Of a DNA stretch of 64,000 nucleotides, positions 6,473-20,684 are shown one piece after another. The notes beneath the pieces were generated by a model, which was not told where the DNA came from, made no database searches, and was given only the letters and a program-made list of their open reading frames with translations. Positions within the stretch are counted from its first letter, which is position 1, and each line of letters begins with the position of its first letter. The stretch is from Myxococcota bacterium. Lineage in GTDB: Bacteria > Myxococcota_A > UBA9160 > JAFDDA01. Made by a program: the position numbers and the translations under genes. The DNA lies in NCBI GenBank assembly GCA_965228475.1, contig OZ245817.1, forward strand, positions 4,768,262-4,832,261, given 5' to 3'.

Positions 6473-6783
6473 TGTACGCGGTTGTGCGAACCGGCGGCAA
6501 GCAAGTGTGGGTCGCGCCTGGCGAGGCGGTCCGGGTGGAGAAGCTCCCCGGCGAGGTCGGCGAATCGATCGAGCTCGGCGAAGTGCTGCTCGTCGGCGGC
6601 GAGGGCGAGGCCCGCGTCGGCCAGCCGCTCGTGGATGGCGCCAAGGTCGTCGGCACGATCACGGCCCAGGGCAAGGGCCCGAAGATTCATGTCTTCAAGA
6701 TGAAGCGCCGAAAGAACTACAGCCGGCGGCAAGGCCACCGGCAGCTCTACACCGAAATCCGTATCGACAAGATCGAGGGTTAA
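6472..6783 (+). CDS. rplU: 50S ribosomal protein L21
   Basis: ORF 6472..6783, [14 protein letters not shown]... is a typical L21. The ATG overlaps the rng stop by 1 nt (TGATG), and a GGAGAG SD is present. Confidence 0.95.
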
Positions 6784-6788
6784 GTCCG

Positions 6789-7049
6789 ATGTCACACAAA
6801 AAAGGACAGGGCAGCTCCCGCAACGGCCGCGACAGCAACGCGCAGCGCCGTGGCGTGAAGGTCTTCGGCGGACAGCAGGTGAACGCCGGTGCGATCCTCG
6901 TGCGCCAGGTCGGGACGAAGATCCACGCCGGGCGCAACGTGGGCGTCGGCAAGGACTACACGCTGTTCGCCCTGCGCACGGGCGTGGTCCACTACGACGA
7001 CCGCCGCGGCCGCAAGGTCGCCCGCGTCGACGAAGCCGCCGCCTCCTAG
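6789..7049 (+). CDS. rpmA: 50S ribosomal protein L27
   Basis: Internal ATG of ORF 6348..7049. [29 protein letters not shown] is the L27 signature (86 aa). Confidence 0.95.
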
Positions 7050-7081
7050 GCCCGCGGCCCCCGGCAAGCGGGGCTCCCCCA

Positions 7082-8167
7082 ATGAACACGGACAAGAGCT
7101 TCGTCGACGAAGCCGTCGTGCACGTGCACGCGGGGCGTGGCGGCGACGGTTCGGTGAGCTTTCGGCGCGAGAAGTTCGTGCCGCGCGGCGGGCCCGACGG
7201 TGGCGACGGCGGGCGCGGCGGCAGCGTCATCTTCGTGGCGGATCGCAACCTGGCCACGCTCGTCGACCAGCGGCTCCACCCGAAGATCCGCGCCGAGAAC
7301 GGCCTGCCCGGCGAACGGCGCAACCGAAACGGCCGCGGGGGTGAGGACAAGATCGTCCCCCTGCCCGTCGGCACCCTGATCTTCGACGCGGACGCGGGCG
7401 AAGACGCCGAACCCCTCGCGGACCTCTCCGAGGACGGCGCACGCTACACGGCCGCCCGCGGCGGGCGGGGCGGACGCGGCAACACCCAGTTCACCTCGCC
7501 CACGCGGCAGACGCCGGACTTCGCCGAGGACGGCCGGCTCGGCGGGCTCGCGAACCTGCGCCTCTCCTTGAAGCTGCTCGCGGACGTCGGCCTGGCCGGG
7601 CTCCCGAACGCCGGCAAGTCGACCCTGCTCTCGCGCATCTCCGGCGCGAAGCCGCGCGTCGCCGCCTACCCCTTCACGACCCTCGTCCCGTCCCTCGGCG
7701 TGGTCGAGAAGGGCGAGCATCGCTTCGTCGTGGCGGACATCCCGGGCCTGATCGAGGGCGCGAGCGAGGGCACCGGCCTCGGCGACCGCTTCCTCCGCCA
7801 CGTCGAGCGCACCCGGCTACTCGTCCACGTCCTCGACGTGGGGACGTGCCTGCTCGAGGAGCGCGACCCGCTCGCGGACTACGAGACCATCCGCGGCGAG
7901 CTCGAAGCCTACGGGGCGGAGCTCGGCGAGCGGCCCGAGATCGTCGCGCTGAACAAGCTCGATCTCATCGCGGACCGCGAGGCACTCGATACCTTGGAGG
8001 CGGAGTTCGCCGCCCGGGGCCGGCGCGTGCTGCGCATCTCCGGGGTGACGGGCGAAGGCATCGACGCGCTCATCGACGCCATGGCCGAAGCCGTCGGCCA
8101 GGCGCTCGACGCGGAAGAGCAGCGCAAGCGCGAGGCCGAGCGCGAAGAAACGAGGACCGAGTCGTGA
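7082..8167 (+). CDS. obg: GTPase Obg/CgtA
   Basis: ORF 7082..8167. It has the Obg fold (FVDEAVVHVHAGRGGDGSVSFRREKFVPRGGPDGGDGGRGG) and GTPase motifs (GLPNAGKST, DIPGLIEGA, NKLD). Confidence 0.95.
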   Translation: MNTDKSFVDEAVVHVHAGRGGDGSVSFRREKFVPRGGPDGGDGGRGGSVIFVADRNLATLVDQRLHPKIRAENGLPGERRNRNGRGGEDKIVPLPVGTLIFDADAGEDAEPLADLSEDGARYTAARGGRGGRGNTQFTSPTRQTPDFAEDGRLGGLANLRLSLKLLADVGLAGLPNAGKSTLLSRISGAKPRVAAYPFTTLVPSLGVVEKGEHRFVVADIPGLIEGASEGTGLGDRFLRHVERTRLLVHVLDVGTCLLEERDPLADYETIRGELEAYGAELGERPEIVALNKLDLIADREALDTLEAEFAARGRRVLRISGVTGEGIDALIDAMAEAVGQALDAEEQRKREAEREETRTES

Positions 8168-9297
8168 GCGATGTGCGAAGAAAGCACGTGAAGGGCGCGC
8201 GGCGGATCGTCGTGAAGGTCGGGAGCAGCTCGCTCAGCTCCGACGGCCAGCTCCGGACGCGCCTGTTCGGCGACCTCGCCCGCCAGATCGCCGAGCTCAC
8301 CACGAACAAGCGCCGCTTCGTGATCGTCTCCTCGGGCGCCATCGCCATGGGTGCGCGTACGCTCGGCTGGAAGAACCGCGGCCGCTCCATCCCCGAGAAG
8401 CAGGCCGCCGCCGCCGTCGGGCAGATCGACCTCGTCGAGACCTACCGCAAGCGCTTCGCCCGCCACGACATGCAGGTGGGTCAGGTGCTCGTGACGCGCC
8501 AGGGCATGGAAGACCGCGAGCGATTCCTGAACGCCCGCCACACCCTGACGACCCTGCTCGACATGGGCGTCGTGCCGATCGTGAACGAGAACGACACCGT
8601 CGCGACCGACGAGATCCGCTTCGGCGACAACGACAACCTCTCGGCCACCGTGCTGAACCTGATCGGTGCCGACCTGCTCGTCCTGCTCTCGGACGTCGAC
8701 GGCCTCTACGAAGAACGGCCCGAAGCCGGCAAGCCCAAGCCGAAGATGATCCGCGAGGTCGAGAAGATCGACGCGCGCATCAAGCGCGCCGCGAGCGGCC
8801 CGGGCAGCGACTTCGGCAGCGGCGGCATGGCGACCAAGCTCGAAGCCGCCGAGACCGCCGCCCGCTCGGGCGCCGCGACGATCGTCTGCAACGGCCGCAA
8901 GAAGGACATCCTCCTGAAGCTCCTGGCCGGCGAGCCCGAAGGCACGCTCTTCCTGCCCGGCGAGAAGCTCAACAGCCGCAAGCACTGGCTCGCCTTCACC
9001 ACGCGCCCGAAGGGCGAGCTCGTCCTCGACGACGGCGCCGTCCGCGCGCTGCGCGAGGGCGGCAAGAGCCTGCTCCCGGCCGGCATCACCGAAGTCCGCG
9101 GCCGCTTCCGCATCGGCGACGCCGTCGCCTGCGTCGACCGCCGCGGCAACGAGATCGCCCGCGGCCTCGCCGCCTACGCCTCCGGCGACGTCGCCCGCAT
9201 CCGCGGCCTCGAGACCCGCAAGGTCGCGGGCGTCCTCGGCTACACGAATGGGGATGCGGTGGTGCACCGGGACGACCTGGTGGTGCTCACGGGCTGA
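8164..9297 (+). CDS. proB: glutamate 5-kinase (with PUA domain)
   Basis: In-frame GTG at 8164 within ORF 7846..9297, overlapping the obg stop (GTGA). Motifs RIVVKVGSSSL and IPIVNENDTVATDEIRFGDNDNLSA, with a C-terminal PUA-like region. Confidence 0.9.
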   Translation: MSDVRRKHVKGARRIVVKVGSSSLSSDGQLRTRLFGDLARQIAELTTNKRRFVIVSSGAIAMGARTLGWKNRGRSIPEKQAAAAVGQIDLVETYRKRFARHDMQVGQVLVTRQGMEDRERFLNARHTLTTLLDMGVVPIVNENDTVATDEIRFGDNDNLSATVLNLIGADLLVLLSDVDGLYEERPEAGKPKPKMIREVEKIDARIKRAASGPGSDFGSGGMATKLEAAETAARSGAATIVCNGRKKDILLKLLAGEPEGTLFLPGEKLNSRKHWLAFTTRPKGELVLDDGAVRALREGGKSLLPAGITEVRGRFRIGDAVACVDRRGNEIARGLAAYASGDVARIRGLETRKVAGVLGYTNGDAVVHRDDLVVLTG

Positions 9298-9340
9298 GCA
9301 GGCTCAGGATCTCCCCCGAGCGTCCGTCTGAGATCCACGC

Positions 9341-9374
9341 GGACGCGGGCTCGGTTCCCGCCGCCTCCACAACC
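9341..9374 (+). pseudogene. tRNA/tmRNA 3'-end-like fragment (T-arm plus acceptor 3' strand), degenerate
   Basis: GGACGCGGGCTCGGTTCCCGCCGCCTCCACAACC contains a GCGGG/CCCGC T-stem and a CTCCAC acceptor-like tail, as in bacterial ssrA 3' ends. The loop CTCGGTT departs from TTCRANY, there is no CCA, and no upstream body is possible because proB ends 43 nt before it. Confidence 0.5.
9355..9370 (+). repeat. left copy of the island-flanking direct repeat (TTCCCGCCGCCTCCAC)
   Basis: Matches 16661-16676 (TTCCCGCCACCTCCAC) at 15/16 positions. Read directly from the sequence. Confidence 0.7.
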
Positions 9375-9711
9375 AGTCTCTTTGCTGATCTCTAGCGGGT
9401 CGCTTGTGAGTCTGACGGCTTCAGCTCCCTTCACGCCCGCTTCGTCTTGGACATCGGGCGACGACTGCCGGGAGGCTTGGGTGCCACGTTCCCTAGGAGC
9501 AGGATCGGCACCGCCTCCACCATCATCGCCGCTCCCACTACCGGGAGCGTCACCACGATCGCCAGCATGGTCGCCAACACCAGCAGGGGAGGCATCGTCG
9601 GACGACGATGGTGAAGAGGACGAGGTAGACGAAGTTGATGAACAGGACGAGGCAGAACGACTAATGGCAGTGGGGCTGATCCGACGGCCAGAGTGTCGGG
9701 CGACCAACCTC

Positions 9712-10575
9712 CTAGGATCGTTCGCGGAGACCACCTAGGAACTCGTCGACCGTGGCAACGGCCTGCTGTCGAAGTCTGGCGTTCTCGTCGTTGTTCCCCG
9801 GAGCGGCCAGAAAAGACGCATAGGCGTTCGGGCCGTCCCGACCTACATCAGCGAACCGATCTTCGAGAAGCACCAGGGCGTCGATCACTTGGGGGTGCTT
9901 GATGACATCACTCGATGAGCATCTGCGACCAGCAGCTCGCGGGCCGTCAGCGTGATTCAAGAGCGTGAAGACCAGATCGTACGCGTCCTTGTTGGCATGA
10001 CGGTCCTGAAAAGCAAAGATCTTCAAGACGGTGTACGGAAGGACGTTCGCTACCTGCACTGTGACTCGGGACCGCCCTCCGCCATCGAGCCGCTCGCCCT
10101 CAATCTCGCGCTCCAAATAATCTCTGCGAACGAGCTGCGCCCCCCGGACGTTGAAAGCACCGAGTTTCGTTCCCGCATTCTCGCCCTTCGGTTTAAAGAT
10201 CCGGCCGTCCTCTACCTCGTCCGTCTCGCAGAGAAACTCCACCAGAACCGGGATGCCATCGACGTCTCTGGACCACTGAAAGCTGTGCTCACGCTGAACG
10301 AACTCAGCGGTTAGCAGGTTGTTCTGCAGGGTCCGGTACGTCTCGGGCGTCTCGTCACCAAGAGCGATGCCGATGACGAGATCAATGTCTGTGGTGCCCA
10401 CGTGCGGCTGCACTCCCTCTGGGAGCTGGCTGACCAGGTATCTCGGCGCGAGCCCTCCGGCGAGGAAGATCCGTTCCCTCCACGGCCCGAGGTCACCAAG
10501 CAGCGTGAGCAGGACCCGCTCGCAGCGCGCCGTCGTTTCCTCGTCGTAGCTGGAGCGGTGCCCTCGATTGGTCAA
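9712..10575 (-). CDS. nucleotidyltransferase, AbiEii-like toxin candidate
   Basis: ORF 9712..10575. NTase-like motif FLAGGLAPRYL..HVGTTDIDLVIG. The TTG start overlaps the stop of the upstream AbiEi-like gene (TTGA). The family call is by resemblance only. Confidence 0.5.
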   Translation of the reverse strand: MTNRGHRSSYDEETTARCERVLLTLLGDLGPWRERIFLAGGLAPRYLVSQLPEGVQPHVGTTDIDLVIGIALGDETPETYRTLQNNLLTAEFVQREHSFQWSRDVDGIPVLVEFLCETDEVEDGRIFKPKGENAGTKLGAFNVRGAQLVRRDYLEREIEGERLDGGGRSRVTVQVANVLPYTVLKIFAFQDRHANKDAYDLVFTLLNHADGPRAAGRRCSSSDVIKHPQVIDALVLLEDRFADVGRDGPNAYASFLAAPGNNDENARLRQQAVATVDEFLGGLRERS

Positions 10576-11624
10576 AACCCGATCACCTCTCTCCGTAGAT
10601 GGTCTGCCTGCTCCGTACCCCTTCGGGGATCGCTGCGTAGATCGACGTAGAGACGAAACTTGTTGACCAGACAGAGATTGTTGGTCAGCTCGCGAAAAGC
10701 GAGAGGTGCGTCGTGCCTAGATTGAAGGAATGTGACGTTCTGACCTTCGGTGACTGGCCTGGCACCAGTCACTTCGTGCAACTCTTCAACAGCCGCTGTT
10801 GCTCCTACCCAGACCTCGATGACAGGTACCGCAGTAATGAACGGAGCGATCAAGGTCCCGGCCGCAGCGCCTGTAAGCGCATACTCGATATGGCCTCTTG
10901 TGAGACGTTCGGCTAGCTCCTGGATCACCCGCTGGGGTGTCTGCTCGAGGAGATAGGCTGGGGTCCGAGTTGGTCGATCCGCGTTCTCCTCTGCCCAGAG
11001 ATCGAGGAGCGCGGCCGGGTTGGCGAGGCGCCGAACTCTCTTTGGCCCCGCGCCTTCCGTGGCGACGATCTCCTCGAGTTCCAGGCGGGTGAGTACGCGG
11101 TGCGCAAGCGCGGCCGACGTTTGCGCCTTGTCCGCAAGGTCTGCGACCTGCCAGTCACGATCCGGTTGCAGCAGCAATGCCTGGGCAACGATCCCAGCCT
11201 TTCCTCGCAAACGTGTCGGCCGTACCGCGGCAGCGTGCTTCGACGGCTTGCGCCGACCTGCGAGGTGGTAAACGAGGCCGGGCAGCTCAATGTGGGCGTT
11301 GCCCAGGCCGTCGATCAATGCGACGCCATGCTCCTTCAGAATTTCCCGCGCCGCGGTCGTGGTCTCGCCAGCGACGAGGAGCAGCGGCAAATCCGGTCGC
11401 TCGTGCGCAATATGTACGAGCTGCCAAGCGGTCGCGGTGTTCGCTCGCTGCTTGAACTCAACAGCAACCGCTGTCTGAGTCCCGGCGTATCGCACGATGG
11501 CATCAACGCGCCGATCGGGGTCGGGCGGCTCGGCGACGACCGTGAGGCCGGGGACCTCGCGGAGGATTCGGAGCGCCTCAGCTTCAAAGGCTCCGGTGAT
11601 ATTTACCATTTCTCTTTTATTCAC
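10572..11624 (-). CDS. AbiEi-like antitoxin/transcriptional regulator with a PD-(D/E)xK-like N-terminal domain
   Basis: ORF 10572..11624. N-terminal D..E.K pattern (RVDAIVRY..VAVEFKQR), a central wHTH-like segment (WQVADLADKAQTSAALAHRVLTRLELEEIV), and a C-terminal domain like the one paired with AbiEii-type NTases. Confidence 0.5.
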   Translation of the reverse strand: MNKREMVNITGAFEAEALRILREVPGLTVVAEPPDPDRRVDAIVRYAGTQTAVAVEFKQRANTATAWQLVHIAHERPDLPLLLVAGETTTAAREILKEHGVALIDGLGNAHIELPGLVYHLAGRRKPSKHAAAVRPTRLRGKAGIVAQALLLQPDRDWQVADLADKAQTSAALAHRVLTRLELEEIVATEGAGPKRVRRLANPAALLDLWAEENADRPTRTPAYLLEQTPQRVIQELAERLTRGHIEYALTGAAAGTLIAPFITAVPVIEVWVGATAAVEELHEVTGARPVTEGQNVTFLQSRHDAPLAFRELTNNLCLVNKFRLYVDLRSDPRRGTEQADHLRREVIGF

Positions 11625-11658
11625 CGCACCGGTAAATATAGGTATTTCGGTAAATATA
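11598..11658. promoter_or_regulatory. AT-rich operator/promoter candidate: three copies of GGTAAATAT(A)
   Basis: The plus strand has CGGTAAATATA at 11630-11640 and 11648-11658 as a direct repeat. An inverted copy, GATATTTACC, lies at 11598-11607. The set straddles the AbiEi-like start codon (GTG 11624; alternative ATG 11609). Confidence 0.35.
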
Positions 11659-11798
11659 TCCAGAAGGCTTAGCCCGCAGCTTGACCCCCCAACTAAGAAA
11701 ATTTTCCCTTTTATTTCAGATAGTTACTACCCCGATTCGCACACAGCCAGAGGCCGCGTCCTGGAGCACTGCGCCAAGGTCGATGCCTTCGACGGCCC

Positions 11799-12161
11799 CT
11801 AAGGGGAGCAACGCCCCCGCGAGTCGTATGCCCAGTCAACGCCGCCCCGACGCAGGAAGAAGTGACTCTTGCAGCCAACCGTCCTTCGAATCGACGGGTG
11901 AAGGGTGATCGTACCGCTCTTGTGAGGCACCGCGCTCCAACGTGGGCGAATTGTGGGCAGGGTGTTGAGCTGGATGAGCTCGCCGCACTCGCACGGGCAC
12001 AAGAAGCAGACGAACCAAAGATGCCCGCCTTCGCCGACCAGGTAGAGGGCGCCAGCCTCCGGCTCGTCGGGGATATCGTGAGTGGTGCGGTTGCGGTACG
12101 GCGCCGGGCGCCCGCGAAGTTGCTCCCAGGCCCGGGTCAGCCAGTACAGCAGGCCCTCCAC
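11799..12161 (-). CDS. DUF6527-like Cys/His-cluster protein (candidate Zn-binding partner of the Ubl system)
   Basis: Last 121 codons of ORF 11799..12305. The GTG at 12159-12161 overlaps the E1 stop by 1 nt (TAGTG), with a GGAG SD 8-9 nt upstream. Motifs FVCFLCPCECGELIQLN ... HPSIRRTVGCKSHFFL. Confidence 0.65.
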   Translation of the reverse strand: MEGLLYWLTRAWEQLRGRPAPYRNRTTHDIPDEPEAGALYLVGEGGHLWFVCFLCPCECGELIQLNTLPTIRPRWSAVPHKSGTITLHPSIRRTVGCKSHFFLRRGGVDWAYDSRGRCSP

Positions 12162-13555
12162 TACTTGCTCTCCTTCTTCGCGCTCAGCATGGGCAGCCCA
12201 AGTGGCGGGCTCGAATCGCCTCGGCCGACGCACTTCGCAAGGGCTGCATCTACCTCGTAGTCGCACTCCGCCTTCACGATCTGGAACAGCCCAGAGTGGG
12301 ACCACATGAGCGAGGCGAGCTCGGCGTTGTCCTCGAGGCGAAACGGATGCAGTCGCGCCAGGAAGTCGAGCACGGCGGCTGCGGAGTAGAACATGTTCAC
12401 GGGCGCCACCGCCGGGCGACCGACCTCGACGCCGGTGATGTATTTCTCGTCGCGCTCCGCGGCGAAGGCCTCCGGGTCGGCGCGCTGGAGGTTCGCCGCC
12501 CGAAGCTGCTCGCCCGTATACAGGCCGCGAGTGAGCAGGCTCGAGAGCCCCGGCTGCAGGTAGTGCACCGTGCCGCAGACCTGGTCGATGCCGCCCGCGC
12601 CGTCCGCGATCAGCCGGACCCCAACGTCAAAGTAGGGCAGGGCGTAGAAGGCGGCGAGGCGGTTCAGCAGGTGTCGCCCGTCGATCGAATCGACGCAGCC
12701 GAACACTATGTCCACACCGGCTACTGCGGTAAGGGCATGCGGGTGCTCGAGCTCGTGCGGGATGATCTCCACCTGCGTGCCGAGGCCGAGCGCTTCGACG
12801 CGATCGCGGAGCACCTCCACCTTGAGGCGCCCGACGTCGGCCGCCGTCGCCCCGTCGATGCGGTTCAGGTTCTTCTCCTCGACATCGTCCGGGTCCACGA
12901 GCACCAGCTGCCCGATCTCGAGTTTGGAGAGCAGGTCCACCACCCAGCTCCCGGTGCCGGACGTACCGACCACCGCCGCGCGGAGCCCGCGGAGCGTGCT
13001 GTAGGTGCCGTCGCCGAAGACCTGGGCGTTGCGCTCGCCGGCGGCGCTCACGGCCGTCTCAAGCGGCGTGGAGATGTGGATGTCGGCGCCAACGATCATG
13101 ATGGACGAGAGCGGCCCGTGGGTGCCGTCCTCGAAGTGAGCGCGGGCGATCAGCCGCCGGCCCGGCAGCAGGATGGCGCTCGCGTGCGGCAGCCCATCAT
13201 CGAGCCATCCATGAATGGACGGGAACAGCGCGTCGTCGGCCGCGTCGTCCGTGATGCTGAACGCCGCGCAGCCGCTCGGGTGGCTGTGCACCTTGAGGAT
13301 GGCCATGCTCTCCTTCGTGGCCTCGACCAGCAGGGGCTGCAAGAACTCGGTCTTCCAGGTGAGGAGGTCCTGCTCGCGGCGCTGATACTGGTCTTCGGGC
13401 ACTGGCACGACACGGTGCCCGACCAGGCGATGACGGCCGCCGTGCTCGTGGCGACCGCAGAGCACGACGGCGCCGGCCTCGAGCCCATCCCCGGGGAAGA
13501 GCGCCCCTTCGAGCTCGGTGAGCTGCGCTTCGGTGAGCGTGAGCGATACGTCCAT
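12161..13555 (-). CDS. JAB/JAMM metalloprotease - ThiF/E1-like adenylyltransferase fusion
   Basis: ORF 12161..13681 trimmed to the ATG at 13553-13555 (MDVSLTLTEAQL), which overlaps the E2-like stop by 1 nt (TGATG). It has an exact JAMM motif, HSHPSGCAAFSITD (HxHx7Sx2D), with an upstream Glu. The E1 Rossmann segment is VVGTSGTGSWVVDLLSKLEIGQLVLVDPDDVEEKNLNR plus FGCVDSIDGR. Confidence 0.85.
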   Translation of the reverse strand: MDVSLTLTEAQLTELEGALFPGDGLEAGAVVLCGRHEHGGRHRLVGHRVVPVPEDQYQRREQDLLTWKTEFLQPLLVEATKESMAILKVHSHPSGCAAFSITDDAADDALFPSIHGWLDDGLPHASAILLPGRRLIARAHFEDGTHGPLSSIMIVGADIHISTPLETAVSAAGERNAQVFGDGTYSTLRGLRAAVVGTSGTGSWVVDLLSKLEIGQLVLVDPDDVEEKNLNRIDGATAADVGRLKVEVLRDRVEALGLGTQVEIIPHELEHPHALTAVAGVDIVFGCVDSIDGRHLLNRLAAFYALPYFDVGVRLIADGAGGIDQVCGTVHYLQPGLSSLLTRGLYTGEQLRAANLQRADPEAFAAERDEKYITGVEVGRPAVAPVNMFYSAAAVLDFLARLHPFRLEDNAELASLMWSHSGLFQIVKAECDYEVDAALAKCVGRGDSSPPLGLPMLSAKKESK

Positions 13556-13959
13556 CACCTGGGCCTCAAGGCGAACTCGCGCTCGAGCCAGAAGTGCACG
13601 AGCGCCAAGTGGGAGCCGACGTCGTCGACGCCGGGCCGCCAGGGATTTTGACCGGTGCGGTGGCGCGACCAGCGCTGCCACGACTTCCCTTCGAACTGGT
13701 CCGCCGAGATCTGCGGGATGGCGACGCCGTCGATGCGCGCGAGCGCAGGCAGGAAGTAGACCATGTCGATCTGCGTCTCGGGATAGGCGGGCTCGATGCG
13801 CAGGTTCAACGTGGCGCGGTCGTGCTTGTAGCCGGGCGGGATCGGGAAGTCGTGAATGATCAACCGGCCGACGCCCCCGGCGCGCACGGTCTCCCAGGGG
13901 AGGCCCTGCGCGTCGAGGAACTCGACGTCTCCTTCGGGAAGCTCGAACTCACGGCGCAT
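13555..13959 (-). CDS. E2/UBC-fold protein (prokaryotic E2 family E-like), cysteine-free
   Basis: ORF 13555..13959. E2/UEV-like beta-meander pattern GRLIIHDFPIPPGYKHDRATLNLRIEPAYPETQIDMVYF, then WQRWSRH..WRPG. The 134-aa translation contains no Cys. Its ATG overlaps the Ubl stop by 1 nt. Confidence 0.6.
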   Translation of the reverse strand: MRREFELPEGDVEFLDAQGLPWETVRAGGVGRLIIHDFPIPPGYKHDRATLNLRIEPAYPETQIDMVYFLPALARIDGVAIPQISADQFEGKSWQRWSRHRTGQNPWRPGVDDVGSHLALVHFWLEREFALRPR

Positions 13960-14264
13960 CAGCGCGACCCCTCGGTCTGATCGAGGGGCAGCGTCACGAA
14001 GCGCTCAACTCCCTTGCGGGTGAAGTCGACCTTCGTGTCGGCCAGCACCTGCTGCATCTCCCCGCCGCGAAACTTCTCGAAGAGCTGAAACTCGGCGGGC
14101 TTCTTGCCGACGAGCTCGAGGATCTCGGCGCCTGTCAGGCAGGGTTCGTGCACGACGTGGCGCTCACGATCGATGCGAATGCGGTAGCGGCGGCAGCGCG
14201 GAGGAGTGCGATCCTCCTTGGCATACCGTTCCAGGTCGACGACTTCGTCGTTGTGCTCGGTCAT
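13959..14264 (-). CDS. ubiquitin-like protein, single 'multiubiquitin'-type beta-grasp domain
   Basis: ORF 13959..14264 (101 aa). The pattern YRIRIDRERHVV..LTGAEILELVGKKPAEFQLFE..VDFTRKGVERFVTLPLDQTEGSR resembles the multiubiquitin domain family. It is the first gene of the cassette, with a GGAG SD. Confidence 0.6.
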   Translation of the reverse strand: MTEHNDEVVDLERYAKEDRTPPRCRRYRIRIDRERHVVHEPCLTGAEILELVGKKPAEFQLFEKFRGGEMQQVLADTKVDFTRKGVERFVTLPLDQTEGSR

Positions 14265-14305
14265 GAGTGTCTCCTCTGAGATGGAGCGACTTCGGTGTCG
14301 CTCTA

Positions 14306-14340
14306 CCCTCTATGCCGGCCTCAGGCCGGTTTCAGGACAC
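14306..14340 (-). promoter_or_regulatory. promoter-like motif copy A (upstream of the Ubl cassette)
   Basis: The minus strand reads GTGTCC-N16-CCGGCATAGAGGG and ends 41 nt upstream of the Ubl ATG. It matches 16537-16571 at 26/35 positions, with identical end blocks. Confidence 0.4.
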
Positions 14341-14349
14341 ACGGACGGA

Positions 14350-15285
14350 TCAGTCGAGGGCGGAGAGAACCGAAGCGGCGTCGGGGAGCACCCGCAGGTG
14401 ACGGCCCAGCGTCAGGACGGCGTAGCGGTTCGAGAACGACTCGAAGAGGAACTCGTGGGCTTCGCCGTTGCGGTCCGTGAGGATCGTGGTCTTCTCACCG
14501 AGCGGCCCCCCGCGAGCAGGACGGCAGTAGCTGGCGATGATCGCGAAGAGCGACTGCTCGGTGGTGCTGCCAAAGCGCTCGCGATACGACGGGGACTCGA
14601 TCACGTGCTTGCAGGGAGCAGCGGGGTCGAAATCGGCGTCCGGTCGGTTCGGGTTCCCGCTGATGATCCCCACCATGGGCGTGTCGGCGTGCGCCTCCTC
14701 CACGAAGCGCCAAAGCGTCGAGCTCAGCGTGTTCTCAAAGGTCTTCTTCAGGTCCTGCACGCTGTCGAAGGACACAGGAAGGTCGTTCGCCTCGTCGGAG
14801 AACCGGTTGGCAAGGAAGATGAGCTGGCCGGCGGCGTAGTTCGCCTCAGCCTCCGTCGCATGGCGGCAGGCCGGGTCGAGGTTCTCGACGTCGTCGCCGT
14901 AGGCGTATCGGCCGTGCCAGGGGCACATCTGGTGCCCATGCTCATGCGCTTCGAGCCATCGATGCTTCAGGGGGTGAACGTCGCCATCGATGAGGATGCG
15001 CTTGCGGTCGGGAAGCCAAAGAGCCCGGAGCTCGGCCTTGCGCACGACATCGAGAAGGAGGCTCGGTCGCAGCGCGAGCTGCTTGCTCGCAACCCGGATG
15101 CGGCTGGCCATCTCCTGCAGGGCAGAGTCGTCCGTCGAGCTGAAGTACTTCAGATCGAGTTCGCGGAGATCTCGCACGTCGGCGAGATCAAGGGGTGGCT
15201 CAGGGTTGCCGAGCGCACGAAGCGTCTTTCCGACAATGACCTTGATGTCCTCGGCTTCCCGGGCACCGATCGTGAAGTTCTTCAT
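14350..15285 (-). CDS. ImmA/IrrE-family HExxH metallopeptidase
   Basis: ORF 14350..15357 trimmed to the ATG at 15283-15285 (MKNFTIG). The start has a GGAGGAG SD and overlaps the upstream stop (ATGA). Zinc motif WLEAHEHGHQM (HEHGH). Confidence 0.8.
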   Translation of the reverse strand: MKNFTIGAREAEDIKVIVGKTLRALGNPEPPLDLADVRDLRELDLKYFSSTDDSALQEMASRIRVASKQLALRPSLLLDVVRKAELRALWLPDRKRILIDGDVHPLKHRWLEAHEHGHQMCPWHGRYAYGDDVENLDPACRHATEAEANYAAGQLIFLANRFSDEANDLPVSFDSVQDLKKTFENTLSSTLWRFVEEAHADTPMVGIISGNPNRPDADFDPAAPCKHVIESPSYRERFGSTTEQSLFAIIASYCRPARGGPLGEKTTILTDRNGEAHEFLFESFSNRYAVLTLGRHLRVLPDAASVLSALD

Positions 15286-15875
15286 GTCTCCTCCTCGCCA
15301 TCCGTGAAGTCGGCGAGCAGGCTGATGAACTGAGAAAGCTCGCGCCGCTCCTTCCACGAGAGCTTGCCGATGTCGTTGCCGGAGCTCGCGGCGAACTTCG
15401 TCACGCCGTCCTCAAGGCGGCGACTACGTCGCTTGACCGCGCCCGAAAGCACGCCGAGTGATCGCTCCGGCAGCTTGAAATGATTCTCGAGCTGATAGAG
15501 CGTGCGCAGGCTTGGCCGGAAGGCGGCATCCATTCGGATCTGATGGAGCTCGGCTTCGTCCACCGCGGCCCTGTCCGCCAGCTCTGCAAGGTTCAGCGAG
15601 TCACGGCGCATCAGCCGGTCGAGGAGCGTGTTCAGCCCTTCGTGAAGCTCATGCGCGGGGGCTTCCAGAGTGTCGGCGACGGTCGCTGCCATGTCGACAC
15701 GCGCGATGGCGCGATCGATGGCGAGCTCCGCTCGTTCCGCGATGGCCTCCGGGTCCTCCCCGTTGTCGCTCAGCGCCTCATCAATCTCCTCCTCGCTGGC
15801 TTCGAACACGAAATCAACGAACGCGTCATGCAGCGAGCGGGAAGAGTTTCGGGTGCTCTTCTTGCTCTGGGTCAT
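15282..15875 (-). CDS. XRE-family helix-turn-helix protein (putative repressor or anti-sigma-like partner of the protease)
   Basis: ORF 15282..15941 trimmed to the ATG at 15873-15875 (MTQSKKST), which overlaps the sigma gene stop (ATGA). Central Cro/C1-type HTH: LNLAELADRAAVDEAELHQIRMDAAFRPSLRTLYQLENHFKLP. Confidence 0.65.
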   Translation of the reverse strand: MTQSKKSTRNSSRSLHDAFVDFVFEASEEEIDEALSDNGEDPEAIAERAELAIDRAIARVDMAATVADTLEAPAHELHEGLNTLLDRLMRRDSLNLAELADRAAVDEAELHQIRMDAAFRPSLRTLYQLENHFKLPERSLGVLSGAVKRRSRRLEDGVTKFAASSGNDIGKLSWKERRELSQFISLLADFTDGEEET

Positions 15876-16486
15876 TCTGCCTCTCCTGCGCCTTCGAACT
15901 CTGCGAGCTTTCGAATGGCGCGCTTCCTGACGGTTTCCCATCTCTTGTTGTCGAACCCGAGTTCTGCCTTGATCTCGGCAGGCTTGAAGCCTTGCGCTTT
16001 GAGCTCGAGCACACCGAGGAGCTCTGGGTCGTCCGCAAGGAACTCGTTGAGCTTGTTCAGCGAGTCGCGGGCTGCAACCTGCGACTCGCTCGTTGCAGCG
16101 GGTGGCGCACCTCCGGGTGACACCGTGTCACCGAGGGGAGGTGGCCGATCGAGCGCCGTGGCTTCGAGATGTCGCTCGTCGGAGCGCTTGTTCTGCCCAA
16201 CGGTGTGGCTCGCGATGCTCTTCATCGTCTTCGAGAGGAACGTCGCCAACGACACGCCGTCCGGGGGCTGTCGGCGCTCCTCGAGCACCCGAACGACAGC
16301 CTCCTGAAGAAGGTCGTCCGGCTCCACGAAACGGGACTGCAGGCGAAAGTGCCCCCACCAACGCCGTGCAGCGACGAGTAGGCGCTTTCGGTCGGCATTG
16401 GTGATCGCGCGGAGCTTGGCAAGCAGCTCTTCGCCGGATCCTTCTTCTCTCTCATCTTCCGAATGAACGGTGTCGTCGTCGGCCAA
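15872..16486 (-). CDS. sigma-70 family (ECF-like) RNA polymerase sigma factor
   Basis: ORF 15872..16486. Region-2-like DDLLQEAVVRVLEERR and region-4-like LGVLELKAQGFKPAEIKAELGFDNKRWETVRKRAIRKL. TTG start with a GGAGG SD 7 nt upstream. Confidence 0.7.
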   Translation of the reverse strand: MADDDTVHSEDEREEGSGEELLAKLRAITNADRKRLLVAARRWWGHFRLQSRFVEPDDLLQEAVVRVLEERRQPPDGVSLATFLSKTMKSIASHTVGQNKRSDERHLEATALDRPPPLGDTVSPGGAPPAATSESQVAARDSLNKLNEFLADDPELLGVLELKAQGFKPAEIKAELGFDNKRWETVRKRAIRKLAEFEGAGEAE

Positions 16487-16536
16487 TCACGGGCCTCCCT
16501 TCGGATCGAATCTTCGTGCCCACGTCTGCGGTTCAC

Positions 16537-16571
16537 CCCTCTATGCCGGGCCCACGAAGGAACCGGGACAC
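16537..16571 (-). promoter_or_regulatory. promoter-like motif copy B (upstream of the sigma/HTH/protease trio)
   Basis: The minus strand reads GTGTCC-N16-CCGGCATAGAGGG, the same architecture and spacing as 14306-14340. It ends 50 nt upstream of the sigma TTG. Confidence 0.4.
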
Positions 16572-16574
16572 GGG

Positions 16575-16630
16575 AGGCACTAAAGAACTCGGAAGCCAGT
16601 TCCGGTCAAACCCAAGTGCCTGCTTTTTAT
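16575..16630. terminator. nested hairpin with T/A runs at the island's right edge (bidirectional terminator/insulator candidate)
   Basis: Outer stem AGGCAC (16575-80) pairs with GTGCCT (16616-21). Inner stem CGGAA (16590-94) pairs with TTCCG (16600-04). GCTTTTTA follows on the plus strand and AGTTCTTTA on the minus strand. The structure lies between the oxygenase stop and promoter motif B. Confidence 0.3.
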
Positions 16631-16660
16631 AAGGAAAAGGCGGATTGAGGTCGTGTGCGA

Positions 16661-16676
16661 TTCCCGCCACCTCCAC
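16661..16676 (+). repeat. right copy of the island-flanking direct repeat (TTCCCGCCACCTCCAC)
   Basis: 15/16 identical to 9355-9370. The extended context CGATTCCCGCCACCTCCACC is also tRNA/tmRNA 3'-end-like. It abuts the stop codon (16680-82) of the oxygenase gene. Confidence 0.7.
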
Positions 16677-16679
16677 CGC

Positions 16680-17657
16680 CTAGCGAACCAGAAAATCCTC
16701 GACCTGGATCTCGCTCCCGTAGTCCGCGAAGTCTCCGGCGGAGCGTTGGTCGCGGAAGTGGGACCAGGGCACGGGCCGGAACTTCGGGGCGTTCGACGGG
16801 TCGGCATCGAGGATCGGTTCGCAGACGGTTTCGTAGCGCGGGTTGTAGAAGAAGGGCGCGCTGAAGCGCTCGCGGTCGCGCCTCGCGAGGACGCGGTGGA
16901 CGGGGGAGCGATAGCGGTCGTTGCTCCAGACGCGGAGCATGTCGCCGAGGTTCACCGTGAACGCCCCCGGGACCGGCTCGACGAGCTCGAACCGGCCGCC
17001 CGTCTGGACCTGCAGGCTCGCCACGCGGTCCTGGTAGAGGATCGTGAGCGCGCCGGCGTCGCTGTGGGGATGGACGCCGAGGTGCCCGTCCTCGGGAAGG
17101 GGCGCCGCGTCGGGAGCGGCGGGCGAGTCGCACACGGGGTAGCGGTTCAGGCGGACGAAGCTCGAGTCGCCCTCGAAGAAGCGCGCGAGCCGGTCGGGGG
17201 CGAAGCCGAGACTCACGGACAGCGCGCGCAGCAGGAGCCGGCCGATCCGGCCGCACTCGGTGTGGTGGCGGAGCAGGGTGGCGCGCAGCTCGGGTTCGCC
17301 CGGAGGCCAGCGATTCGTGCCGTCGCTGTGGGCCGGCGCCGCGCCGCCGGCCGCGGGCTCGGCGCCGTAGTCGAAGACCTCCTTCCAGTCCGGCCGGTTC
17401 TTGGTGAGCTCTTCGTCGTAGTAGCCCCAGGCGTTGTCGCGCGAGCGGCGCACCTGCTGCTTGACCGAAGCCGGCAGCGCGAAGAAAACCCGCATGGCCG
17501 CCTCGAACCGGGCGAAATCGTCCTCGGACAGGCCGTGGCCCACGATGTGGAACACGCCGAGCGACCGGCTCGGGCCTTCGAGCTCCGCGGCGACGCGCTC
17601 GAGGGCTCGCGCGTCGCCCGCGTCGAGGCCGCCGATGTCGATGATCTCGGGGGGCAT
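16680..17657 (-). CDS. 2-oxoglutarate/Fe(II)-dependent oxygenase (isopenicillin N synthase-like)
   Basis: ORF 16680..17657. Motifs GVFHIVGHG, HSDAGALTILYQD, NLGDMLRVWSNDRYRSPVHRV. Confidence 0.85.
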   Translation of the reverse strand: MPPEIIDIGGLDAGDARALERVAAELEGPSRSLGVFHIVGHGLSEDDFARFEAAMRVFFALPASVKQQVRRSRDNAWGYYDEELTKNRPDWKEVFDYGAEPAAGGAAPAHSDGTNRWPPGEPELRATLLRHHTECGRIGRLLLRALSVSLGFAPDRLARFFEGDSSFVRLNRYPVCDSPAAPDAAPLPEDGHLGVHPHSDAGALTILYQDRVASLQVQTGGRFELVEPVPGAFTVNLGDMLRVWSNDRYRSPVHRVLARRDRERFSAPFFYNPRYETVCEPILDADPSNAPKFRPVPWSHFRDQRSAGDFADYGSEIQVEDFLVR

Positions 17658-17759
17658 GAGCCGTGATCCTACCGCGCGCCGCTCCCGATGCGACGAACGA
17701 AGAAGGCCGGACGGGAACCCCCATCCGGCCTCGTGATCTTCGCGGCTCCGGGCGTGGGC

Positions 17760-18362
17760 TCAGAGCTTGTCGGCCTCGGTCGAGAGGTAGGCGGCCACGC
17801 CCTCCGGGTTGGCCTGCATGCCCTTGGCGCCCTGGTTCCAGCCGGCGGGGCAGACCTCGCCGTTCGCCTCGTGGAACTGCAGCGCGTCGACCATGCGGAG
17901 CATCTCGTCGACGTTGCGGCCGAGCGGCAGGTCGTTCACGACCTGGTGGCGCACGTTCCCTTCCTTGTCGATCAGGAAGGAGCCGCGCAGCGCCACGCCG
18001 TCCGGCGTCTGGACGTCGTAGGCCCGGCAGATCTCCTGCTTGGTGTCGGCCACCAGCGTGTAGCCGACGGCGCCGATGCCGCCCCTCTCGACCGGCGTGT
18101 TGCGCCAGGCGTTGTGGGTGAACTGCGAATCGATGGAGACGCCGACCACCTCGACGTCCTTCGACTTGAAGGCATCCATGCGGTGATCGAACGCGATGAG
18201 CTCGCTCGGGCAGACGAACGTGAAGTCGAGCGGGTAGAAGAAGAGGACGGCGTACTTGCCCTTCCGCGCCTCGGAAAACGTGTAGCTGTCGACGATGGAG
18301 CCGTCGCCAAGAACGGCGGCCGCGGTGAAGTCCGGTGCAGGCTGACCTACGAGAACGCTCAT
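17760..18362 (-). CDS. typical 2-Cys peroxiredoxin
   Basis: ORF 17760..18362. Motif FFYPLDFTFVCPSEL, with a resolving-Cys region GEVCPAGW. Strong GGAGAAGGA SD. Confidence 0.9.
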   Translation of the reverse strand: MSVLVGQPAPDFTAAAVLGDGSIVDSYTFSEARKGKYAVLFFYPLDFTFVCPSELIAFDHRMDAFKSKDVEVVGVSIDSQFTHNAWRNTPVERGGIGAVGYTLVADTKQEICRAYDVQTPDGVALRGSFLIDKEGNVRHQVVNDLPLGRNVDEMLRMVDALQFHEANGEVCPAGWNQGAKGMQANPEGVAAYLSTEADKL

Positions 18363-18436
18363 GATCCTTCTCCTTCTTTCGAGACCCGAGGCGGGAGGGT
18401 AGCCGGAACCCCACTACCGACCAGGGGTCTCGCGGC

Positions 18437-18991
18437 CTACCGCCCGCACCCCCGCAGGAAGGATCGCTTGGCGAGCTGCACCGCCTCCTCGCTCGTGATG
18501 CGCTCGCGCTCGAGCAGCGACCATGCGGTGTAGAGCGTCATGTCGAAGAACTCGGCGAGCCACTCGGAGGGGACGTCCGGGGCGATCTCGCCCTGCGCCT
18601 TCGCGTAGTCCATCAAGGCCAGCGTCTCGCGCCGGGATGCCTCCATCCTCCGGTGCACCTCGGGGTCGGCTTCCGCTTCGGCCCAGAGGAGGGAGAGGAA
18701 GCGGTAGCGGTCGGCGATCGGGATCAGCACCTCGAAGGTCGCCGCGACGGCGTCGCTCGCGGTGGACTCGTACCGGGGGCGAAGCGCGGCGTCGATCTCG
18801 TCGAGGCATCGGAGCGCGATGCCCTGGATGAGCGCTTCCCGCGATGGGTAGTGTCGATAGAGCGTCGTCCGCCCGACGCCCGAGGCCTTGGCGACCTCCG
18901 ACATGCCCGCGGACGGATTGCCCAGGAAGGTCCGGATGCCCGCCTCGAGGATCGCGGCTTCGGACTGGACGACCCGCTGGTCCCTCTTCAT
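18437..18991 (-). CDS. TetR-family transcriptional regulator
   Basis: ORF 18437..19030 trimmed to the ATG at 18991 (MKRDQR), which has a GGGGAGA SD. HTH: MSEVAKASGVGRTTLYRHYPSREALI. Confidence 0.8.
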   Translation of the reverse strand: MKRDQRVVQSEAAILEAGIRTFLGNPSAGMSEVAKASGVGRTTLYRHYPSREALIQGIALRCLDEIDAALRPRYESTASDAVAATFEVLIPIADRYRFLSLLWAEAEADPEVHRRMEASRRETLALMDYAKAQGEIAPDVPSEWLAEFFDMTLYTAWSLLERERITSEEAVQLAKRSFLRGCGR

Positions 18992-19058
18992 GGCTCTCCC
19001 CTGGCCTCCGAGCCGAGAATAACGGTACACGGTTGTGCCGAAAACAGGACTCCGTTAT

Positions 19059-19074
19059 GGTACATAAGTGTACC
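19059..19074. promoter_or_regulatory. perfect palindrome GGTACATAAGTGTACC in the divergent TetR/Rieske intergenic region (operator candidate)
   Basis: Read directly from the sequence as 6-4-6 dyad symmetry. A related half-site, ACGGTACAC, lies at 19022-19030. This is an AT-rich patch in a high-GC genome. Confidence 0.45.
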
Positions 19075-19103
19075 GTATCTCGCGCCCTGGAGGAGGACCC
19101 TCG

Positions 19104-20261
19104 ATGCTTCTGAACGAAATGCAGCGAATCACCGCCCAGCCCCTCGGCGAGGCCGAGGCCCTGCCCTTCGGGAGCTACCGCGACCCCGAGTACTTCGAGC
19201 TCGAGCAGCGGGAGATCTTCGGCCGGGACTGGGTCTTCGTCTGCACCGAGGCGGATCTTCCCCGGCCCGGCGACTACCAGGCGCTCGTCCTCGCCGGCGA
19301 GCCCCTGGTCGTGCTCCGCGGAAAGGACGGAACGCTGCGCGCCCTCTCGAACGTCTGCCGGCACCGGGGCGCCGTGATGCTGCAGGGAAGCGGGAACGCG
19401 AACAAGATCGTGTGCCCCTACCACGCCTGGACCTACACGGACGGCGGCAGCCTCGCCGGCGTCCCCCACTGCGGCAGCGTCGAGGTCGACCGGGAGGCGC
19501 ACGGGCTGCGCCGGTTCCGGCTCGACTGCCGCTTCGGGCTCGTCTTCGTCAGCCTGAACGAAGAAGCGCCCGCGCTCGCGGAGCGCTTCCGGGGCCTCGA
19601 GCGCTACCTCGCTCCCTACGGAATCGAGAACTTCGTCCACGTCTCCGCGATCGAGCGCCACGCGTGGCGCGCGAACTGGAAGCTCCCCATGGAGAACTTC
19701 GTCGAGGGCTACCACTTCTTCGCCGTCCATCGTGAAACGGTCGAGGCCGCGGCATCGACCCGGGATTGCTTCTACGTCGACGGCCACGCGGACTGGTCGA
19801 TCACCGGCGGCCGTCAGCTCGACGAACCCTCGACGCTCAAAGACTGGGTCCTGCGCAAGCCGAGCGAGGTCGAGTACCTCTCGATCTGCCTGCCCCCGAA
19901 CTTCGTGTGCAACCTCTACGAGGGCTACATGACCTGGGCGCGGGTCCTGCCGACGGGGGCGACGGCGTGCGAGATCGCCACTGGGTACGCCGCCGCGAGC
20001 GCGCATCCCGTGAGCGAGGAGCTAAAGGCCCTGAACGAGAAGATCTTCGGCGAGGACCGGGAGATCTGCGAACGCGTGCAGGAAGGTGTGTCGAGCCGGC
20101 AGGCGAAGGGCGGCCGGCTCGTGGAGCTCGAGCGAGCCGTCGTCGACTTCCACCAGTACCTGGGCAAGCGGCTCTTCGACGAGGATCACAGCCGCCGATT
20201 CCGGACCGAGCACGCGGCCCGCTTCTCCGCGCCCGAGCCTGCGGCGAGCGCCTCGCCCTAG
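19104..20261 (+). CDS. Rieske [2Fe-2S] aromatic-ring-hydroxylating oxygenase, alpha subunit-like
   Basis: ORF 19068..20261. Rieske motif CRHRG..(17)..CPYHAW. The ATG at 19104 follows a GGAGGAGGA SD. Confidence 0.8.
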   Translation: MLLNEMQRITAQPLGEAEALPFGSYRDPEYFELEQREIFGRDWVFVCTEADLPRPGDYQALVLAGEPLVVLRGKDGTLRALSNVCRHRGAVMLQGSGNANKIVCPYHAWTYTDGGSLAGVPHCGSVEVDREAHGLRRFRLDCRFGLVFVSLNEEAPALAERFRGLERYLAPYGIENFVHVSAIERHAWRANWKLPMENFVEGYHFFAVHRETVEAAASTRDCFYVDGHADWSITGGRQLDEPSTLKDWVLRKPSEVEYLSICLPPNFVCNLYEGYMTWARVLPTGATACEIATGYAAASAHPVSEELKALNEKIFGEDREICERVQEGVSSRQAKGGRLVELERAVVDFHQYLGKRLFDEDHSRRFRTEHAARFSAPEPAASASP

Positions 20262-20319
20262 GCGGGGACGCGATCCTTCGAAGCAGCGCTAGGCTTCGCG
20301 GAGCGAGGAGGATCGACGG

Positions 20320-20547
20320 ATGGGTGAGCGAGAAGAACTGCGAGACCGGATCGAGGCGAAGCGGAAGCGGCTCGAGGCGCGCCTCATCGAGCTCCGGGCC
20401 GACTCCCGGAGCGAGGCGCGGGAGAAGTCGAAGGAGCTCGAGGCGAAGCTCGACGCGCTCGCCCAGGACCTGAAGGGCGGCTGGGACGACCTGACGGAAG
20501 GCGTCGCGGCGAAGCTCAACTCCTGGTTGAAGCGGGACGACGACTGA
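20320..20547 (+). CDS. small charged coiled-coil protein, hypothetical
   Basis: ORF 20320..20547 (75 aa) with a GAGGAGGA SD. Heptad-like Glu/Lys/Arg-rich sequence. No family recognised. Confidence 0.5.
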   Translation: MGEREELRDRIEAKRKRLEARLIELRADSRSEAREKSKELEAKLDALAQDLKGGWDDLTEGVAAKLNSWLKRDDD

Positions 20548-20684
20548 GCCACCGCACCCGACGCGACCGCTCGAGCCCGAAGGGGACGAGCCTAACCGGA
20601 CGACTCCTGCCCTGGGCGGCCCTGGCGCTCGCCGCGTGTGCTTCGACCGGCTCGTCGCAGCAGGCGGCGCCGAGCTTCGAAACC

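Follow-up and report, generated by a model that had tools for sequence, protein, structure and literature searches.

A strain-variable accessory island bounded by tmRNA 3'-end fragments in an uncultured Myxococcota-like genome

We analysed a 64-kb stretch of contig OZ245817.1 (hereafter the window, position 1 being its first nucleotide) and found that an accessory island, horizontally acquired and variable between strains, occupies 9300–16648, directly downstream of proB in the genome of an uncultured, Myxococcota-like organism. The feature, first proposed from inspection of the sequence (the original prediction), is real, correctly located and of a familiar kind, an ordinary decayed mobile island. 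This segment of 7,349 bp is the only compositional outlier within the window, its place is taken by other cargo in a sister strain, a fragment of the 3' end of transfer-messenger RNA (tmRNA, gene ssrA) lies at or near each of its boundaries, and its nine genes, all on the minus strand as originally described, read from the right fragment toward proB and belong to at least two modules. Neither an integrase gene nor a tmRNA gene accompanies the island, and we infer that it entered through an integrase which was later lost. Overall, the interpretation given in the original prediction is partly supported.

Composition, boundaries and the sister strain

The island has a GC content of 0.640, whereas the remaining window has 0.705, placing it about 6 standard deviations under windows of the same size (420 other 7.35-kb windows; mean 0.705, sd 0.0105, minimum 0.680); outside the island, no 2-kb stretch within the 64 kb falls below a GC of 0.66. 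The tetranucleotide L1 distance of the island is 0.287, compared with at most 0.137 elsewhere in the window, and the GC content at third codon positions (GC3) is 0.67–0.91 in the island genes against 0.86–0.955 in 13 flanking genes (12/13 at 0.90 or above). Since the composition is an outlier and GC3 is uneven among the genes, with a nearly native central part (Table 1), the island is both foreign and mosaic. The GC drop that had been estimated by hand is borne out by these computed values.

The locus lies within a conserved rplU-rpmA-obg-proB-proA-nadD-rsfS cluster, which is split here by 12.3 kb (9298–21558). In relatives with 62–82% identical proB, proA follows directly after proB, the two genes overlapping in several of them; the closest proB genes in public genomes are those of Myxococcota metagenome-assembled genomes, at 62–64% identity (genome contig scan). 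The proB-proA gap is filled by the island, at the proB-proximal end, together with a block encoding a 2OG-Fe(II) oxygenase, a peroxiredoxin, a TetR protein, a Rieske oxygenase, a 75-aa open reading frame (ORF) and a DUF4437 protein. This oxygenase block is absent from the relatives with 62–82% identical proB, and is present in the sister strain, L083.

L083 is represented by a second, lower-coverage contig of the same sample (ENA assembly ERZ25074506), with a 98% identical proB. Instead of the island, its slot holds a different 1,899-bp cassette (5765–7663) with a GC of 0.60 and three plus-strand genes. By blastn, homology between the two strains stops at 9299, 2 nt past the proB stop codon, and resumes at 16649, the first base of the right tmRNA-end fragment, with flank identities of 98.3% on the left and 95.9% on the right. 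The island was originally described as fixed; because it is absent from L083, it is polymorphic. Likewise, the empty site that was expected in a relative turned out to be a slot occupied by the three-gene cassette. Because L083 has the oxygenase block and the right fragment without the island, the histories of block and island are separable.

The L083 cassette encodes a 159-aa protein without matches, a 185-aa XRE-type helix-turn-helix (HTH) protein matching the PADLOC candidate PDC-M64B (2e-8) and phrog_1373, and a 177-aa protein matching phrogs of unknown function; judged by these matches, the cassette may be another candidate defence or toxin-antitoxin module. Elsewhere in the flanks, where identity to L083 is 97–99%, two patches of lower identity (0.88–0.89) occur at 20249–21447 and 22647–23023, spanning the 75-aa ORF, the DUF4437 gene and the proA/nadD junction; these may be recombination tracts or reflect local fast evolution.

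tmRNA 3' ends at both boundaries

The direct repeats on which the original prediction was built, TTCCCGCCGCCTCCAC at 9355–9370 and TTCCCGCCACCTCCAC at 16661–16676, are present, both on the plus strand and 15/16 identical. As an independent criterion, we searched the window with a tmRNA 3'-end 20-mer, GATTCCCGCCRCCTCCACCA, which was defined without reference to the window, allowing up to 3 mismatches. It matched exactly two sites, both of them the repeats, where 0.01 matches were expected, and two matches were obtained in 0/100 shuffles. The repeats lie within approximately 40–70 bp of both the compositional and the homology boundaries, and the chance of a random pair sitting at boundaries in this way is approximately 0.006 (a rough estimate). 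These results indicate that the pair is significant, because both copies are tmRNA 3' ends and both sit near the boundaries.

Each fragment comprises approximately 30 nt of T-arm and acceptor strand. The left one, CGGACGCGGGCTCGGTTCCCGCCGCCTCCACAA, has an intact T-stem, the T-loop CTCGGTT, the acceptor 3' strand CGCCTCC and the end A-CAA. It aligns to the T-arm and acceptor 3' strand of tmRNA (Rfam tmRNA_permuted, a partial match of 21.5 bits covering model positions 31–107 only, with mismatched acceptor pairs), matches the acceptor piece of a phage-encoded permuted tmRNA at 29/32 positions (blastn, phage genomes searched), and is 88–94% identical to tmRNA 3' ends among IMG/VR loci. DNA-level matches of the region 9298–9760 are confined to this piece (9338–9375). 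In the right fragment, GGTCGTGTGCGATTCCCGCCACCTCCACCG, the 5' strand of the T-stem has decayed, and 1 nt separates the fragment from the oxygenase stop codon. The block common to both fragments extends from the T-loop to one base past the discriminator; since the T-loops (CTCGG vs TGCGA) and arms differ, the fragments are not simple duplicates of each other.

L083 holds one tmRNA-like piece, GGACGTGTGTTCCGGCCGCCTCCACCC (7664–7690), orthologous to the right fragment of the window, and the two have in common a derived change, GTGTG in place of GCGGG. Because homology starts at 16649 and this change is shared, the right repeat is resident flank DNA, rather than an attR hybrid formed after the strains split, and the left repeat is part of the segment specific to the window's strain.

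Among IMG/VR sequences, the exact 18-mer TTCCCGCCGCCTCCACCA is present in at least 120 stretches, usually with GGACGCGGGTTCGA upstream, or variants with TGCGA and TCCGA. For the first 60 of these loci, ARAGORN placed a tmRNA gene at the spot in 20/60 and the 18-mer is an orphan piece in 40/60; among the 20 genes, it is the literal 3' end in 11 standard tmRNAs and internal in 9 permuted ones. We considered the left fragment as the start of a permuted tmRNA gene, and rejected this on a negative ARAGORN result, the limited reach and mismatched acceptor pairs of the Rfam match, and an end of CAA rather than CCA. A third att (attachment-site) remnant, CCGCCTCCACCA at 9511–9522, was likewise rejected, given that 17/100 shuffles score as high and that it lies inside a called 54-aa ORF. 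As a side observation, ARAGORN predicts a permuted tmRNA gene in Tunturiibacter phage Tunturi_4 (PP885687.1, ~43.4–44.0 kb; 2938–3472 of the stretch retrieved), at a place where the record has no feature, directly downstream of a gene annotated as an RF-1 domain peptide chain release factor.

Origin of the island

We lean toward reading the segment as a decayed, att-flanked, integrase-less island, similar to the cis-mobilizable elements (CIMEs), in a strain-variable hot spot. An ssrA-type integrative element would have recombined with an orphan ssrA-3'-like site beside the oxygenase gene, and would then have lost its integration module, presumably once located in the 340-nt gap adjoining the left repeat. 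This would have left a non-autonomous island with att flanks, in a slot whose cargo would since have turned over between strains. A genuine ssrA 3' end is then expected to fit GGACGCGGG.TCG.TTCCCGCC.CCTCCACCA. Tyrosine integrases that target ssrA leave direct repeats of the tmRNA 3' end as their classic footprint, and those that target tDNA generally leave such a pattern by attP x attB recombination in the T-loop. Entry through an integrase is favoured because the T-loop-to-discriminator block and the differing arms of the two fragments fit attP x attB recombination.

The claim that no integrase, recombinase or transposase is encoded withstood a domain search of the nine island proteins and a Pfam search of six-frame fragments of 9298–9760, which detected neither such domains nor integrase remnants; remnants of conjugation or integration genes were not found for the island either. 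The gap itself (9375–9711) had been called non-coding debris. It has no detectable homology beyond the tmRNA piece (blastn, tblastx), in keeping with that description, but a 54-aa, strongly hydrophobic ORF (MPPLLVLATMLAIVVTLPVVGAAMMVEAVPILLLG...; GC3 0.84) is called on its minus strand at 9431–9595, between the left repeat and the first gene, g1. This ORF, which has no family matches, may encode a small membrane peptide, or its call may be spurious.

Several observations weigh against this origin. An empty site, with proB, one repeat and the oxygenase gene in succession, was not found, L083 being the one close relative available for comparison. ARAGORN detected no tRNA or tmRNA gene anywhere in the 64-kb window, and so at neither end of the island, which hence is not a canonical ssrA island; from the proposed entry at a tRNA- or tmRNA-like att site, the tmRNA 3' ends stand, as orphan fragments without such a gene. 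Their tmRNA identity was judged by the Rfam model and by tmRNAs of phages and IMG/VR loci. No att- or tmRNA-like remnant lies inside the island between its two cargo modules. L083 has neither the left fragment nor the 40-nt spacer, so that any integrase model needs at least one extra event, and orthology between the right fragment and the only fragment in L083 extends to the arm on the left side of the shared core. The island did not simply integrate into a site like that of L083; with two alleles known, every history needs at least two events. Finally, direct 16-mer pairs with 15/16 identity are commonplace in a 70% GC window (n = 491, of which 239 are spaced 1–20 kb).

This last point also supports regarding the repeats as chance matches of GC-rich sequence and the lower GC as a consequence of gene content, with no mobile-element history; in the shuffle control for the 16-bp repeat, two or more matches were seen in 3/100 shuffles. 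In both copies, however, agreement with the tmRNA 3' consensus continues well past the 16 bp, where 0.01 such matches are expected, the copies coincide with the boundaries of composition and homology, and the segment is missing from the 98% identical sister strain. Coincidence is thereby effectively refuted and, in our view, highly improbable. Before direct repeats that are short and rich in GC are taken for att sites, an independent criterion is needed; here it was provided by the tmRNA-end identity and the sister-strain comparison.

A strong rival, partly overlapping with entry through an integrase, is homologous exchange of cargo alleles, in which alleles between proB and the resident fragment were swapped by recombination in the flanks. 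The island would then not have arrived by its own att recombination, and the left fragment would have travelled inside the imported allele or be an older relic. Such a swap fits the boundaries, one 2 nt past the proB stop codon and the other where the resident right fragment begins, as well as the L083 cassette, which is likewise of low GC, carries a candidate-defence HTH gene (PDC-M64B) and is accompanied by one fragment only. Beside the junctions, identity to L083 is reduced: the final 177 nt of proB are at 0.949 and the 400 nt adjoining the right junction at 0.955, compared with ~0.98–0.99 farther away. This is weakly compatible with recombinational import; nevertheless, these dips are small, and similar or larger ones occur elsewhere. 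Exchange leaves unexplained why a second, direct tmRNA 3' end sits exactly at the far edge of the imported allele. Moreover, it overlaps with integrase-mediated entry rather than excluding it, because an integrase event is still needed in the history of the allele. We regard exchange without att recombination of the island itself as possible, yet on the unlikely side.

Import in one step is very unlikely. Here, the whole 12.3 kb, comprising a truncated ssrA 3' end, the island, the displaced fragment and the oxygenase block, would have come from the neighbourhood downstream of ssrA in a related genome, and been inserted between proB and proA by illegitimate recombination. The direct proB-proA junction in all relatives with 62–82% identical proB, the native-like GC3 of the oxygenase block, compatible with a related donor, and the resemblance of the left fragment to a truncated ssrA end with its T-stem intact are as this account would have them. 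Orthologues of the oxygenase (78–82% identical, two loci), however, are found in unrelated contexts, and the 10 kb around them contain no tmRNA-like fragment, so an original position of ssrA beside the oxygenase block was not supported; no tmRNA gene was detected at L087, the one of the two loci that is demonstrably covered. In addition, the island is missing from L083, although the oxygenase block and the right fragment are both there.

We also entertain, as an unlikely variant, that the orphan tmRNA 3' fragment beside the oxygenase gene acts as a landing pad, at which defence cassettes without an integrase of their own would be inserted and exchanged repeatedly by ssrA-specific integrases that resident prophages or islands provide in trans; this would work somewhat as at an integron attI site, but with a decoy tDNA end. 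If true, this would explain why two strains of the same sample carry differing candidate-defence cargo ending at the exact 5' edge of the fragment.

The search for an empty site in other genomes yielded only distant relatives with proB at 64% identity or less in a genome contig scan, and no contig beyond the source in exact-protein look-ups of the oxygenase, BubB and L27. Searches for intact relatives of the proposed element gave little. A scan of metagenomes with BubCD gave one irrelevant 30% match, and blastn of the whole island yielded nothing against phages and only the Bub genes against plasmids; with the window proteins (island and flank), tblastn against 80 IMG/VR loci carrying TTCCCGCCGCCTCCACCA found nothing.

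The favoured origin, a decayed integrase-less island, can be set beside three known kinds of locus. Defence-island hot spots between core genes without mobility genes are familiar from pangenome studies of E. coli and Pseudomonas. The present slot likewise has the same flanks, different candidate-defence cargo and no mobility genes; it differs in that two alleles have been seen, and in that it lies inside a recent lineage-specific insertion with tmRNA-derived att-like sequences. Islander-type tDNA islands (PMC4383910) are similar in the direct repeats of the target-gene 3' end at both ends, with a T-loop-to-discriminator block, and in cargo of foreign composition that is absent from a close relative. 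Their displaced 3' fragment at the end opposite the target gene is in direct orientation, and both fragments here are on the plus strand. Such islands, however, need an intact tRNA or tmRNA gene at one end and a tyrosine integrase gene inside, and the present island has neither (ARAGORN; partial Rfam match). Where those islands have an uninterrupted site in a relative, L083 has a single fragment but another cassette of 1.9 kb; the site here, between proB and the oxygenase gene, is an orphan fragment, and the "displaced fragment" also occurs in the island-less strain.

CIMEs are decayed integrative and conjugative (ICE) or integrative and mobilizable (IME) elements, which keep attL and attR and have lost the genes for integration and transfer (PMC5704250). 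The island resembles them in being att-flanked, in having no recombinase or transfer genes, and in occupying a slot with cargo turnover; recombination at its two att-like direct repeats, mobilisation by a tandem element and descent from an ICE or IME are putative. CIMEs as described adjoin an intact target gene, whereas the island does not. Read in this manner, the locus is a further, clean case of a defence island that has decayed, is flanked by att sequences and sits in a slot varying between strains, here in an uncultured lineage of Myxococcota; it shows that att sequences from a tmRNA end can survive far away from ssrA and delimit cargo there.

The Bub cassette and the AbiE-like pair

The cargo was originally described as accessory, consisting of an AbiE-like pair, a ubiquitin-like cassette and a sigma/HTH/protease trio, and domain and PADLOC matches agree with this, defence being assigned by homology only (Table 1). 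The notion of a single unit did not hold: the island is made up of at least two modules that are mobile independently of each other, the seven-gene cassette sigma-CapH-CapP-BubA-BubB-BubCD-BubE and the AbiE-like pair g2-g1, because both recur separately in other contexts. The mobilizable Planctomycetes plasmid pPla133_1 carries all seven cassette genes in unchanged order, at 32–54% amino-acid identity, and the g2-g1 pair recurs alone in two unrelated neighbourhoods at 78–81% identity.

Table 1 Features of the proB-proA region. GC3 is given as one range for the AbiE-like pair, for CapH, BubE, CapP and BubA, and for BubCD and BubB.
Feature	Position	Strand	GC3	Evidence and remarks
proB (glutamate 5-kinase), conserved left flank	8164–9297	+		Pfam AA_kinase+PUA
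Strain-specific variable segment, island proper	9300–16648		0.67–0.91	blastn breakpoints and composition
Left tmRNA 3'-end fragment	9340–9372	+		33 nt, holds left repeat; inside strain-specific segment
Gap beside left fragment	9373–9711			where an integrase would be expected
g1, AbiEii-like nucleotidyltransferase, putative toxin, 287 aa	9712–10575	-	0.67–0.72 (g1 0.72)	GG...TTDIDLV motif; weak matches only
g2, AbiEi-like regulator/antitoxin, 345 aa	10572–11609	-	0.67–0.72	Mrr-like N-domain, winged HTH, C-domain
BubE, DUF6527 serine protease	11799–12161	-	0.79–0.83	Pfam DUF6527 (PF20137) 1.1e-19; labelled BubE in source gene table
BubCD, JAB/JAMM peptidase + E1-like adenylation fusion, 464 aa	12161–13555	-	0.89–0.91	Pfam ThiF 3.5e-29, Prok-JAB 2.7e-5; PADLOC E1-E2 models
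BubB, E2-like	13555–13959	-	0.89–0.91	Pfam Prok-E2_E 3.1e-37
BubA, ubiquitin-like, 101 aa	13959–14264	-	0.79–0.83	Pfam Multi_ubiq 1.8e-13; C-terminus ...TEGSR
CapP-like HExxH metallopeptidase (IrrE/ImmA family)	14350–15285	-	0.79–0.83	PADLOC capP 1e-9; HEHGH motif
CapH-like HTH repressor	15282–15875	-	0.79–0.83	PADLOC capH 2.9e-6
Divergent sigma-70/ECF-like factor, first cassette gene	15872–16486	-	0.72	NCBIfam sigma70-ECF 1.7e-7 (below its cutoff), Pfam Sigma70_r2 3e-4
Right tmRNA 3'-end fragment	16649–16678	+		pattern search; holds right repeat
Older lineage-specific block, native composition	16680–21452		0.90–0.935	gene tables
proA	21559–22824			

The Bub genes resemble Type I Bub operons (6E.1/DUF6527; PMC11601596; bioRxiv 10.1101/2022.04.27.489752) in most respects. 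BubE has the C4 zinc motif CxxCxCxC, and an S-x6-C-x2-H spacing (S+7=C, S+10=H) as in S92/C99/H102 of PMC11601596, which agrees with the Ser/His dyad and C4 zinc site of Type I. BubCD is a JAB/JAMM-E1 fusion with the JAMM motif HSHPSGCAAFSITD (HxHx7Sx2D), and BubB has zero cysteines and an S-x-H (WSRH) where the catalytic serine/histidine pair of the cysteine-less Type I E2 sits. BubA is a Multi_ubiq ubiquitin-like protein (Ubl) whose C-terminus is Gly plus a short tail (2–3 residues in the BubA proteins of the window and pPla133_1), and an upstream CapH/CapP pair with a sigma-70-family factor is likewise found in both.

The Ubl-E2 fusion BubAB, which all Type I Bub operons are stated to encode (PMC11601596), is not present here: BubA and BubB are separate ORFs in different frames, with a 1-nt overlap (TGATG). 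The same split occurs on pPla133_1 (5692–6427 of the stretch retrieved), where BubA ends in TEGSCG, and the arrangement seems to be a Type-I-like subtype without the fusion, not an assembly error. The conserved sigma-CapH-CapP-Bub cassette with unfused BubA and BubB is thus common to a Myxococcota chromosome and a Planctomycetes plasmid, and could be a convenient candidate for testing Bub function; the practical value of the present findings is modest.

CapH and CapP together accompany 31% of 544 Bub operons, and Bub operons have been reported in mobile elements at tRNA genes (PMC11601596). A sigma-70-family factor alongside CapH and CapP has been reported in 24 CBASS (cyclic-oligonucleotide-based antiphage signalling) systems. 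The present pair, an HTH repressor and an HExxH IrrE-like metallopeptidase beside an operon, corresponds to known CapH/CapP pairs; the sigma, CapH and CapP genes are co-oriented with the Bub operon, whereas the regulators are mostly divergent in CBASS-linked cases. CapH would repress the cassette, activated CapP would cleave CapH after DNA damage or infection, after which the sigma-like factor may activate the Bub genes, so that expression would be induced by DNA damage. BubCD would trim and adenylate BubA and hand it to BubB for conjugation, and BubE would remove the conjugates. This logic is carried over to the present genes from PMC11601596 and the CapH/CapP paper. An anti-phage role of the island genes is putative, and the term defence is a homology-based label only; phage protection by any Bub operon has not yet been found by the Bub authors (PMC11601596). 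The 85-nt spacer between capP and bubA (14265–14349, minus strand) contains the palindromes CCGGCC-TGA-GGCCGG and GAGCGAC-ACCGAA-GTCGCTC, which could be an attenuator or a CapH operator.

The second module resembles AbiE type IV toxin-antitoxin systems (AbiEi + AbiEii), in which a regulator gene likewise precedes a nucleotidyltransferase gene with a 4-nt overlap, behind its own promoter with direct repeats; the winged HTH and AbiEi_2-like region of family members and the GG...DxD nucleotidyltransferase motif are also shared. In contrast to known AbiE systems, neither g1 nor g2 reaches a curated threshold, an Mrr-like domain is added at the N-terminus of g2, and an AbiE function of the pair is putative. 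For g1, the matches are to PADLOC AbiEii (E 0.0045, with no stretch passing alone) and Pfam NTP_transf_8 (E 0.007, below its cutoff), and no sequence relative was found in PDB; a homologue with 81% identity, paired with a g2 homologue, occurs at one of the two other loci (L090).

The g2 protein of the window has no Pfam match. Its family is unusually conserved across phyla, with members 62–80% identical in Elusimicrobia, Actinobacteria, Acidimicrobiales and Myxococcota-like genomes; among 34 close members, 17/34 match AbiEi_2 (best E 1.9e-5), 7 match Mrr_cat and 24 match HTH_IclR. The AlphaFold2 model of g2 has a mean pLDDT (predicted local distance difference test score) of 59.5 and is confident only for the N-domain and the winged HTH. 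The family architecture, an Mrr-like PD-(D/E)xK-type N-domain followed by a winged HTH and an AbiEi_2-like region, is captured by no curated model for the window protein.

A spacer of ~190 nt, rich in AT, separates the Bub cassette from g2. Within it, a promoter scan placed a promoter-like site, TGGATA-16-TATATT, upstream of g2 (11630–11662, minus strand), and an 11-nt direct repeat, TATATTTACCG, occurs at 11657–11647 and 11640–11630, 17 nt apart; site and repeats could be an operator for the AbiEi-like regulator g2.

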